This document shows positions 18,796 to 24,000 of a stretch of 24,000 nucleotides of DNA, piece after piece. Source of the DNA: Pseudomonas sp. CCC3.1 (GTDB lineage: Bacteria; Pseudomonadota; Gammaproteobacteria; Pseudomonadales; Pseudomonadaceae); contig NZ_CP133778.1 in assembly GCF_034347405.1 (NCBI RefSeq), positions 4,362,275 through 4,386,274 on the forward strand. The letters are read 5' to 3'. The translations under genes were made by a program, and so were the position numbers. Position 1 is the first letter of the stretch; each line of letters starts with the position of its first letter. The notes beneath the pieces were generated by a model that searched no databases, was not told the origin of the DNA, and was given only the letters and a program-made list of their open reading frames with translations.

Positions 18796-20088
18796 TCAAT
18801 TCCGGAATAGGTTTTCACGGTGCCATGTCAGATAGGAGCGATGGCGCGGCTCGATCTGCCGTAACCTCAATGCAGGGCTCAAATGGAGCGCCGCCGCTGT
18901 CGCTGCATCTACTTCAGGGCTCAGCAAAATGTCGCCATCGTCATCAAAGCTGATCAAGCCTTGATCAAAGGCCAAGTCGAGGTTAGGGGTCAGAAGCAGT
19001 CCATTGAACTGATCAAGTCGCTCGGCATGGTTCGCTGACCGCCAAGGCTTGATATGCGAGGCACGCAGCAATTGGGGAATGGAGCACTCGGTTACTGAGC
19101 AACCGCCCCAATAAGCCACAAGGGAATCGCGATAACGGCTTTGACCGATACGAGCTTTGATCAAAGCGTCTCGCTCTGTGTCAGTCAGAGCTACCTCACC
19201 CAGATCGATAGTCATCGCAGCCGGCGTAGCCGGCATAGCTGGCACTTCGTCAGGAAGGGACTCGTGACCAAGCAGAGATTGGACAAGAGCATTCATTGCT
19301 GCAGTGTCACGAAAGCCAAAAGCAATCCCATAGTTTATGGGCGTAGTGCCGCTATGGAGGCGCTTGGGAAAACCACGCAGGTTGCTGTTGTGGTAGTAAG
19401 GCTCCGCTGGACGCTCGACACCGGTTATCTCGGACCATTCGACAAGCTTTGAAGCATGCATGGGATGCAACACCAACGGTGCACGCGTCGATTGACCTGC
19501 CCCCCTCTTGACATAAATCGGCTCATCCAACGCTGGATGCATCAGGCGGAATACTTTGTTTCCCGGCAAGGGTGTCAAAACAAATCCCGCTTGTTCGAGA
19601 CCGCTTACGATCTGTTCAACGGTTAGCGCATGCCCGTTGAACTGGCCAGGCACAGGTGAGGCCGTTGAGAACGGCTCTCCATTCGCGGATTGATCAAGCG
19701 AGTACTCGTTGGGCCATTTGACAACACGGTTCTTAATTGGATATGTCTTCAAAAAGCCTGGCGCTTGCAAACGCGCCAGCGCGGGTTTTCCGACTGCCTC
19801 CCAAGGGGTGTCAGCGCCAGCAACGAGGCGTGAGAAGCTGATGATGGGCCCGTTTTTCTGCGCAATTATCCAGGCGAGACAGGCTTCTGCGCGATCACGG
19901 GTACCGCTCTTGTTGCCCAAGCGTATCTGGCCATCTGCGATGATCCATAGGTCGAGACCTGAGTCATGCACCGCCAGTACAAACTCGGCGAAATCATCAC
20001 GGACGGCCGTAGGCCAGTCTGCGGCAAGAATTGAAAAGGGTGAGCTGCGCTCGAATTTTTTGACAACATCTTGCAATGACGTACTCAT
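18796..20088 (-). CDS. HNH_2-family endonuclease with a roughly 300-aa uncharacterised N-terminal domain (candidate Type IV / modification-dependent nuclease)
   Basis: The C-terminus 'RIGQSRYRDSLVAYWGGCSVTECSIPQLLRASHIKPWRSANHAERLDQFNGLLLTPNLDLAFDQGLISFDDDG' matches the HNH_2 (PF13391-type) pattern (Q..FR...CA+TG......AAHIKPW......NGL.L...+H..FD.G). The preferred start is the ATG at 20088. The 20109 start in the ORF track is a TTG. Confidence 0.85.
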   Translation of the reverse strand: MSTSLQDVVKKFERSSPFSILAADWPTAVRDDFAEFVLAVHDSGLDLWIIADGQIRLGNKSGTRDRAEACLAWIIAQKNGPIISFSRLVAGADTPWEAVGKPALARLQAPGFLKTYPIKNRVVKWPNEYSLDQSANGEPFSTASPVPGQFNGHALTVEQIVSGLEQAGFVLTPLPGNKVFRLMHPALDEPIYVKRGAGQSTRAPLVLHPMHASKLVEWSEITGVERPAEPYYHNSNLRGFPKRLHSGTTPINYGIAFGFRDTAAMNALVQSLLGHESLPDEVPAMPATPAAMTIDLGEVALTDTERDALIKARIGQSRYRDSLVAYWGGCSVTECSIPQLLRASHIKPWRSANHAERLDQFNGLLLTPNLDLAFDQGLISFDDDGDILLSPEVDAATAAALHLSPALRLRQIEPRHRSYLTWHRENLFRN

Positions 20089-20149
20089 TTTCGTTCCCTG
20101 AAAGGGCAATATCGAATGGCCACACCCTAAGCAATCCAGCTACAAACGT

Positions 20150-23400: not shown

Positions 23401-24000
23401 ACGGCGCAGAAAATCACTACGTTCCAGCCAAGCGATGGCCGTCACCACCTTGGTTTCGGCATCACGATCTTCTGCCGCGAATGTCGTTTCGACAGTTGCA
23501 TCCAGCAGAATCTCGCCGGCCGTAATAACCAACTCTCGTCCTTTGCGCTTTGAAGTTTCCCCGCGCAGCTTTTTCAGAATTTGCTGGATATCACGAAGAC
23601 TGAGCTTGGAGCGCTCGCTTATCCCAAACTGCGCTTCAATATCCTGTGGATCGTAGAGCAGCACGCAGCGGGCGCTTTCCTGATCTCGACCGGCGCGGCC
23701 AGCCTCCTGCAGGTAGTTTTCAAGTGAGCCGGGGATATCCGCGTGGATGACCAGGCGGACATCCTTCTTGTCGACCCCCATGCCGAAGGCGTTGGTGGCA
23801 ACGATGACTCGAAGCACCCCTTTGATGAAATCGTTCTGAATGTCGGTCTTCTCGCCAGGCGGGAGCCCTGCGTGGAAATACTTGCAAGCCCAACCCTTCC
23901 CAACCAGAAACTCCGAAAGCTCCTCCGCACCTTTACGGCTGGAGACAAAGACCACGGCCCCTCCCTCTTGGGTGACCAGATTGTCTTCCAGCAACTGCTG
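20419..24000 (-). CDS. Giant fusion helicase: RecQ-like SF2 helicase fused to a UvrD/PcrA-like SF1 helicase (N-terminus outside the window; more than 1190 aa visible)
   Basis: The frame is open through base 24000. The RecQ C-lobe reads '[17 protein letters not shown]...[18 protein letters not shown]...[42 protein letters not shown]'. About 500 aa of linker follows. The UvrD motifs are '[22 protein letters not shown]' (I), '[16 protein letters not shown]' (Ia), '[11 protein letters not shown]' (II), '[14 protein letters not shown]' (III), 'LVDNYRSS' (IV), '[15 protein letters not shown]' and '[15 protein letters not shown]' (VI). A roughly 130-aa C-terminal tail has no recognisable motif. Confidence 0.9.
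   Translation of the reverse strand, partial: [1193 protein letters not shown]

Follow-up and report, generated by a model that had tools for sequence, protein, structure and literature searches.

A RecQ-UvrD helicase gene that is open at the edge of the window

At the right-hand end of a 24,000-nucleotide stretch of the Pseudomonas sp. CCC3.1 genome (contig NZ_CP133778.1, positions 4,362,275 to 4,386,274; hereafter the window), three minus-strand open reading frames (ORFs) lie close together: the 3' part of a large gene for a protein with an exonuclease-like domain and two helicase cores, a mini-ORF of 89 codons and a gene for an HNH_2 endonuclease. An initial annotation of this DNA had proposed that the three may form one defence unit. 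The large helicase gene is the main subject of this study.

The minus-strand frame that runs from position 24000 to a TAA codon at 20421-20419 comprises 1,193 codons and is open at the window edge. Its translation contains every motif quoted in the initial annotation, which had correctly described a reading frame of more than 1190 amino acids with RecQ and UvrD cores. Pfam searches with this fragment place a Helicase_C domain at residues 9-106 (PF00271, E 4e-20), UvrD-helicase/AAA_19 domains at 594-763 (PF00580, E 1e-39; PF13245, E 5e-23) and a UvrD_C domain at 1003-1051 (PF13361, E 4e-15), and the NCBIfam recQ model (TIGR01389) matches residues 12-146 (E 2e-38). On the DNA, the RecQ-family superfamily 2 (SF2) C-lobe, which comprises motifs IV-VI and includes QEAGRAGRD, occupies 23683..23976 of the minus strand, and the UvrD-type superfamily 1A (SF1A) core occupies 20848..22260 of the same strand. 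About 475 amino acids separate the two cores and about 142 follow UvrD_C.

A database protein of 1,710 amino acids, P0001, matches the window fragment at 100% identity across the shared part; the 3' part of the gene (20419..24000, minus strand, stop codon included) corresponds to its residues 518-1710. A contig with an identical locus (L001) carries the P0001 gene and extends beyond position 24000, supplying the N-terminus and the upstream genes that the initial annotation had lacked. The 517 N-terminal residues encoded beyond 24000 comprise a DEDD exonuclease-like domain, a cysteine cluster and the RecQ N-lobe, and a Pfam search with full-length P0001 adds a DEAD domain at residues 306-473. 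The 1,710-residue protein is thus arranged, from N- to C-terminus, as a DEDD exonuclease-like domain, a cysteine-rich knuckle, a RecQ SF2 helicase, a probable winged-helix array, a UvrD SF1A helicase and a conserved tail.

The N-terminal region is a probable 3'-5' exonuclease

No Pfam model matches the first 300 residues of P0001. Within this region, D13 and E15 (in FDLE), G68-H69-N70 and D75 (in GHNxxxHD), D95, Y109-H110 and D129 are invariant in sets of 26 and 46 diverse sequences, as is a cysteine cluster (C269/C274/C277) that directly precedes RecQ motif 0. A profile of the N-terminal region matches DEDDh exonucleases, with which it aligns on the D13/E15/H69/N70/D75 motifs, as well as the exonuclease domains of Staphylococcus aureus DinG, T7 polymerase and family B polymerases. 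An AlphaFold2 model of the domain has a predicted local distance difference test score (pLDDT) of 89 and a predicted template modelling score (pTM) of 0.85. Foldseek searches with this model returned S. aureus DinG as the top match, along with RNase T, ISG20, a DnaQ domain, TREX1, oligoribonuclease and Cap18, most of them at a probability of 1.00.

The domain thus has the fold of the DEDD (DnaQ-like) superfamily together with its ExoI (DxE) and ExoII (HNxxD) residues. In the ExoIII region, invariant D129 lies near the start of a helix that begins at residue 126, but the position five residues before it is Asn, and invariant Y109/H110 adjoin a poorly modelled stretch (residues 115-122, pLDDT <50). 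The invariant motifs, profile matches, predicted fold and structural matches together suggest that a probable 3'-5' exonuclease is built into the protein itself. The initial annotation had proposed a neighbouring gene as the possible nuclease partner of the helicase; a nuclease-like domain sits within the helicase chain, outside the window.

Two helicase motors of the same polarity

The RecQ part of the protein contains motif 0 (FGF..FR...Q), TGGGKS, DEAH and QEAGRAGRD. Across 20 homologues, the Walker A, DEAH and motif VI sequences of the RecQ core and all six motifs of the UvrD core are invariant, indicating that both motors are under purifying selection.

Profile scores place both motors within their families and outside the equivalog groups RecQ, UvrD, PcrA and Rep. 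The full-length protein scores 281 bits against the RecQ subfamily model TIGR00614 (cut-off 219.8) and thus belongs to the RecQ family. It falls short of the equivalog model for bacterial RecQ proper (TIGR01389, 320.7 versus 640.2 bits, with model positions 4-358 of 591 matched), and Pfam detects no RecQ Zn-binding, RQC or HRDC domain in the full-length protein. SF1A membership of the UvrD part is supported by PF00580 (137 bits, cut-off 23) and PF13361 (56.7 bits, cut-off 25.6), and the protein scores far below the cut-offs of the NCBIfam equivalog models of UvrD, PcrA and Rep. By these scores, the UvrD part is an SF1A superfamily member and not UvrD, PcrA or Rep itself.

RecQ helicases and the SF1A helicases UvrD, Rep and PcrA all translocate in the 3'-5' direction. 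The two motors are thus not opposite in polarity, and the description of the fusion as one of opposite-polarity motor families was wrong on established knowledge.

The linker and the C-terminal tail

Between the two motors lies a linker of about 475 amino acids (22261..23682, minus strand; about residues 620-1105 of the full-length protein), which appears to consist of probable winged-helix modules followed by a helical segment. Matches to winged helix-turn-helix families are weak and consistent: wHTH-PRTase_assc in 12 of 36 family members, HTH_24, MarR_2 and, in the PDB, YwnA (E 0.026). An AlphaFold2 model of the linker, with a pLDDT of 66 overall and of 70-92 over residues 110-375, contains three helix-helix-helix-strand-strand units. 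The best Foldseek matches to this model, all non-significant, are winged-helix domains such as those of ROQ and Cdt1. No catalytic fold was detected in profile searches against the PDB and Pfam or by AlphaFold2 and Foldseek. These observations suggest that the linker is probably a set of tandem winged helices.

The C-terminal tail (about 142 amino acids; 20422..20847, minus strand) is conserved in an alignment of 36 sequences and ends in WEVV.P. W134 of the tail is invariant in this alignment, and G52, H61, G70, G89 and R116 are nearly so. The initial annotation had proposed a domain search of both segments; this search gave the weak winged-helix matches for the linker and none for the tail.

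The fusion is genuine, conserved and patchily distributed

Database searches listed over 100 full-length relatives with lengths close to 1,710 amino acids, and the best 120 matches are nearly all 1,700-1,740 amino acids long with an identical domain set. A search of contigs from one genome per species confirmed the fusion gene in at least 591 species (591 of 600 pattern matches were upheld). Its hosts include Pseudomonas, Neisseria, Burkholderiales, Rhodocyclales, Methylococcales, Desulfobacterota and Verrucomicrobiota, and one carrier is an actinobacterial metagenome-assembled genome. At 36 of the 38 diverse loci that we checked, the gene is a single ORF of 1,540-1,915 amino acids. This result and the 100%-identical P0001 rule out a frameshift or assembly artefact, which the initial annotation had raised as a possible source of the fusion. 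The RecQ-UvrD fusion is thus genuine and conserved.

The distribution of the gene is patchy and accessory. Eighteen plasmid records have a match that covers at least 80% of the protein, and none of 50,697 phage records does. Positions 18700-24000 of the window have no megablast match among Escherichia coli genomes and plasmids.

A Nostoc punctiforme plasmid, pNPUN02, carries three abutting coding sequences (L096 5827-10845) annotated as RecQ family, UvrD-helicase domain and "3'-5' exonuclease". This homologue adjoins an ISNCY transposase gene. We did not use it as a natural split of the "Rosetta stone" kind, as it is probably a fusion gene that has broken into fragments.

The helicase gene is a self-contained cassette

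The first base of the mini-ORF (20150-20419) is also the final A of the helicase TAA codon, giving the 1-nucleotide TAATG overlap and the 89 codons that had been described. A gene caller run on L001 instead starts it at an internal ATG (20359), which would give 69 amino acids and is preceded by AGGA 7 nucleotides upstream. For the HNH gene, ATG 20088 is a more likely start than the listed TTG at 20109 (it yields the 430-residue protein called in L001, identical to P0241); the gap from the mini-ORF stop to this ATG is 61 nucleotides, in agreement with the spacing of about 60 reported initially.

Comparison with the closest loci reveals where homology stops. Nucleotide homology between the window and the locus of the closest relative (L091, 90% amino acid identity) ends at 20420, and that with a second locus (L002, 83%) ends at 20418, which is to say at the helicase stop codon. 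At the 5' side, homology to both loci begins about 60 nucleotides ahead of the helicase ATG. From the other direction, relatives of the HNH protein at 88% and 71% identity occur in other contexts from which the helicase is absent, and their nucleotide homology to the window covers 18735-20145 and 18787-20121. Between these borders lies a lineage-specific junction of 273 bp (20146..20418, minus strand) that holds the mini-ORF, helicase homology ending at 20418/20420 and HNH-cassette homology starting at 20145/20121. The breakpoints at the gene borders on both sides suggest that the mini-ORF fills a junction between two independent cassettes. In terms of sequence homology, the helicase cassette consists of the gene and a 5' leader of about 60 nucleotides and is horizontally mobile and self-contained, and the HNH gene appears as a cassette of its own (18735-20145).

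The mini-ORF itself has little presence elsewhere. A tblastn search of about 90 homologous loci found it only in the identical contig, and a phmmer search of 1.84 billion representative proteins returned only three short relatives. One of these three, P0361 (83% identical to the mini-ORF product), comes from a contig of 1.5 kb that matches the present locus at 98.6% identity and shows either a deletion or an assembly chimera. The GC pattern of the mini-ORF by codon position is coding-like, and the junction has no unusual RNA structure (z = 0.13). The mini-ORF may be expressed or may be a gene remnant; on homology grounds, it is best described as junction sequence between cassettes and not as an adaptor.

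Neighbouring genes do not recur across helicase loci

In a model built on the proposal of the initial annotation, the dual motor, the 89-residue adaptor and the HNH nuclease would form one co-transcribed defence module in which the motor delivers or activates the nuclease. The common strand, close spacing, TAATG overlap and 61-nucleotide gap favour this arrangement, as do the coding-like composition of the mini-ORF, the lack of a terminator consensus between the genes and the presence of a distinct HNH_2 gene beside the helicase in L002. Co-occurrence of the helicase with the 89-residue ORF and HNH_2 genes, which had been suggested as a check, was not found. In tblastn searches of about 90 loci, the window HNH protein was adjacent to the helicase only in the identical contig and, on the upstream side, in L002; the HNH gene is thus adjacent in 1 of about 68 independent loci, where it lies on the opposite side of the helicase. 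The L002 gene, which lies directly upstream, is a different HNH_2 gene, and a DUF3223 gene lies downstream there. The closest relative (L091) has neither HNH gene nor mini-ORF: upstream are a phage-type repressor gene (HTH/Peptidase_S24) and small ORFs, and downstream are an HTH/MqsA-like pair and a Type I restriction-modification (RM) system. Neighbours thus differ wholly even at 90% identity.

The same picture holds across the family. Clustering of 896 neighbour ORFs yielded no family common to more than 5 independent loci, and among 125 immediate neighbours compared with PADLOC and Pfam no family occurs in more than 2-3. Helicase homologues have no conserved coupled ORF downstream, and the MmeI-like and DUF1016 proteins encoded elsewhere in the window do not recur as partners in tblastn searches of all loci. 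The absence of co-occurrence, the homology borders at the stop codon, the HNH relatives without a helicase, the lack of independent mini-ORF homologues and the nuclease-like domain already present in the helicase protein all argue against the three-gene module, which comparative genomics has thus largely refuted. The fallback offered in the initial annotation, a stand-alone defence or anti-plasmid helicase, fits the evidence best.

In Pseudomonas guineae, an ORF of 1,712 amino acids (L012 15143-20281) starts 7 nucleotides after the RecQ-UvrD gene. We considered it as a tandem paralogue and rejected it, as the two proteins are unrelated; judged by sequence alone, it appears to have a NERD-like N-terminus and an SF1 helicase part, looks like a NERD-type SF1 helicase and may be another large defence-type helicase.

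The HNH gene probably encodes a modification-dependent restriction enzyme

The independent HNH_2 endonuclease gene (18796..20088, minus strand; 430 amino acids from ATG 20088) matches Pfam HNH_2 (E 8e-11) and PADLOC HNH (E 5e-25). In its product, the HNH nuclease is C-terminal, preceded by a small middle domain and, at the N-terminus, by a variable region. The protein has over 1,000 relatives, many of about 277 amino acids, annotated as HNH or "putative restriction endonuclease" and often stand-alone; some have a variable N-terminal extension of about 150 amino acids.

The C-terminal nuclease is homologous to the structure of VcaM4I (6yex, E 2.5e-39), a modification-dependent EVE-HNH restriction enzyme (PMC7897488). 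The layout of both proteins is modular, the HNH nuclease coming after an N-terminal part that in the window protein would be of the sensor type. They differ in that no EVE, SRA or PUA reader domain is detected by sequence in the window protein, which has instead the variable 150-residue N-terminal extension and a middle domain (residues 157-288) that matches PDB 2g7j, a 124-residue "putative cytoplasmic protein" with no known function (E 6e-7). As this middle domain occupies the position of the VcaM4I EVE reader, it may be a DNA-modification reader not characterised before. The HNH gene is thus probably an autonomous Type IV-like modification-dependent restriction cassette.

The helicase resides in defence islands and mobile elements

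The DNA of the window belongs to an island that has integrated at ssrA, with the transfer-messenger RNA at 1177-1568 and a P4-type integrase at 1735-3012. Core defence hotspot 2 of Pseudomonas aeruginosa is flanked by ssrA and is the same kind of site (PMC10250203). Within the island, a DUF3987 protein is encoded at 4005-5444 and a protein with an Integrase_1 domain at 5756-6745, followed by QatA, QatB and QatC (7041-10896, minus strand), which have strong PADLOC and NCBIfam matches. No ORF for the TatD-like QatD follows QatC, and only short minus-strand ORFs are present at 5650-7040; the Qat system may thus be incomplete or a three-gene variant.

Four further minus-strand genes encode a T5orf172/MUG113 protein of 435 amino acids (11293-12600), a DEAD/ResIII helicase of 705 amino acids (12476-14593), a YhcG/DUF1016 PDDEXK nuclease that corresponds to PADLOC PDC-S02 (14590-15651) and an MmeI-like type IIG RM enzyme (15648-18416). 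These genes are more tightly packed than the helicase trio, with 4-nucleotide start/stop overlaps at 15648-15651 and 14590-14593, and the four-gene set at 11293-18416 may be a multi-gene system.

Beyond position 24000 (L001 2-4213), an Mrr-type Type IV enzyme of 306 amino acids (PADLOC mREase_IV, E 5e-83) is encoded upstream of the helicase and is another separate Type IV-like cassette. Divergent from it are genes for an IetA-like AAA+ ATPase (320 amino acids), a 410-residue protein without a match and a MotA/ZorA-like protein (245 amino acids). More defence-type genes thus lie just outside the window.

Homologues elsewhere occupy comparable positions. In P. aeruginosa PA14, the homologue (PA14_RS11730) lies in core defence hotspot 1 (cDHS1) between Shedu and Shango (Johnson et al., who mention the PA14 copy only in passing). 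SIR2-HerA, AAA_15/21 and PDDEXK genes accompany the L002 homologue, which is near the relaxase of an integrative and conjugative element (ICE). The Azospira homologue is cargo of a Tn7-like element together with an MmeI-like enzyme and GmrSD, one homologue sits between insertion sequence elements and the Pseudocitrobacter homologue has been inserted by itself, with guaA on one side and core genes on the other. At other loci, genes directly adjoining the helicase match SoFic, GajA/AriA, PD-T4-1, NERD and several PDC models. The gene thus resides in defence islands and mobile elements, and the window helicase itself lies in a defence island with QatABC, the MmeI-like enzyme, PDC-S02 and the HNH gene.

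The architecture has no match among the defence models and papers searched

Eukaryotic WRN likewise has a DEDD-fold exonuclease-like domain ahead of a RecQ core. Unlike RecQ and WRN, the protein described here adds a complete UvrD motor and a unique tail, and its gene is accessory and mobile where that of RecQ is core. Firmicute DinG similarly joins a nuclease-type domain and a helicase in one chain, and S. aureus DinG is the best structural match to the N-terminal domain, but DinG has a single motor, an XPD-like helicase of the Fe-S type.

Among defence systems, Gabija GajB shares all SF1A motifs with the UvrD part and its PADLOC model matches with an E-value of 3e-49. This match is partial, confined to the UvrD part and split into three stretches, the best of which covers model positions 207-386 of 635. 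Its partner GajA, an OLD-family ATPase-Toprim nuclease, was not found among the window genes or the upstream genes of L001, and GajA-like proteins occur in 2 of 125 neighbours of homologues. Nhi combines a different nuclease with a single SF1B/Upf1-like helicase motor; its likeness is architectural only, and the best 25 of 76 PADLOC families for the window proteins do not include it. PsyrTA (RqlHI) is represented by PADLOC PsyrT matches to the RecQ core (E 7e-32 with the part inside the window and 2.5e-38 with the N-terminal part); no PsyrA match was found in the mini-ORF, HNH or Mrr proteins. DpdF models also match the RecQ core only (NCBIfam DpdF 178 versus a cut-off of 550), and PADLOC identified no other Dpd protein among the ten window proteins scanned; QatC is QueC-like, yet belongs to Qat. 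Among the defence models and literature searched, no system has the combination of DEDD exonuclease, RecQ, winged-helix array and UvrD.

Possible functions of the helicase-nuclease

Helicase-nuclease proteins are recurrent immune effectors. We favour, with moderate confidence, the reading that the window ORF is the C-terminal 70% of a mobile single-gene cassette whose protein acts by itself as a helicase-nuclease against invading DNA. In the scheme that we infer, in which the function is defence and the domains cooperate, the protein would act alone on phage or plasmid replication intermediates or on free or nicked ends: the winged helices and tail would select the substrate, the two 3'-5' motors would unwind it and the DEDD domain would degrade the released 3'-ended strand. 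Extended to the family, which is widespread and occurs in at least 591 species, this would make the gene an immune system on its own: a bacterial "WRN-plus" that joins a DEDD exonuclease to RecQ SF2 and UvrD SF1A motors and would recognise and destroy phage or plasmid DNA unaided. That proposal is tentative, and we give it a little under an even chance.

Several observations weigh against this interpretation. Some neighbours of homologues are housekeeping genes, and the defence-neighbour tallies are raw counts at the loci compared. In the DEDD domain, the assignment of the ExoIII motif and of the fifth catalytic residue is tentative; the AlphaFold2 model of the linker is of low confidence and the tail matches no PDB or Pfam profile. 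PADLOC v2 has no model for the full-length protein and gives domain-level matches only (GajB, DpdF, PsyrT), and the literature searches turned up no experiment on any family member, only the passing mention of PA14. Finally, no terminator or promoter consensus is present between the helicase and the HNH gene, which leaves room for read-through co-transcription in this particular island.

The alternative that survives best is a helicase-nuclease for DNA repair, recombination or replication restart that serves the host or a mobile element, for instance in the processing of ICE or plasmid DNA, and would be a bacterial analogue of WRN or DinG and not an immune protein. DEDD plus RecQ is the architecture of WRN, and DEDD plus an SF2 helicase that of firmicute DinG, the top structural match; copies of the gene are carried by large plasmids or lie beside an ICE relaxase, and the housekeeping neighbours at some loci would fit as well. 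This explanation is nevertheless unlikely. The gene is patchy and accessory, is found at varying positions that include defence hotspots such as cDHS1, forms a single-gene cassette with sharp homology borders and has no fixed link to conjugation or replication genes. The RecQ and UvrD equivalog scores, far below their cut-offs, further argue that it is not the housekeeping RecQ or UvrD.

An abortive-infection or toxin-type helicase, PsyrT-like in that it would be inactive until infection and then attack host DNA, seems to us quite improbable. Abortive infection is common among large defence ATPases, and the PsyrT matches to the RecQ core point in this direction, but those matches reflect a generic RecQ core only, homologues have no conserved antitoxin-like neighbour and the gene is stably kept as a solitary insertion in Pseudocitrobacter. 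A co-transcribed module of helicase, adaptor and HNH nuclease, given the comparisons of neighbouring genes above, is very improbable indeed.

These observations thus describe a large and phylogenetically broad family that is mobile as one gene, and they illustrate that tight spacing and a TAATG overlap inside a defence island need not mean a functional module. The presence of a copy in cDHS1 of the standard laboratory strain PA14 makes a clean genetic test cheap. If the protein is defensive, it would represent a new architecture and would raise the question of why motors that share a polarity but belong to two superfamilies have been fused.

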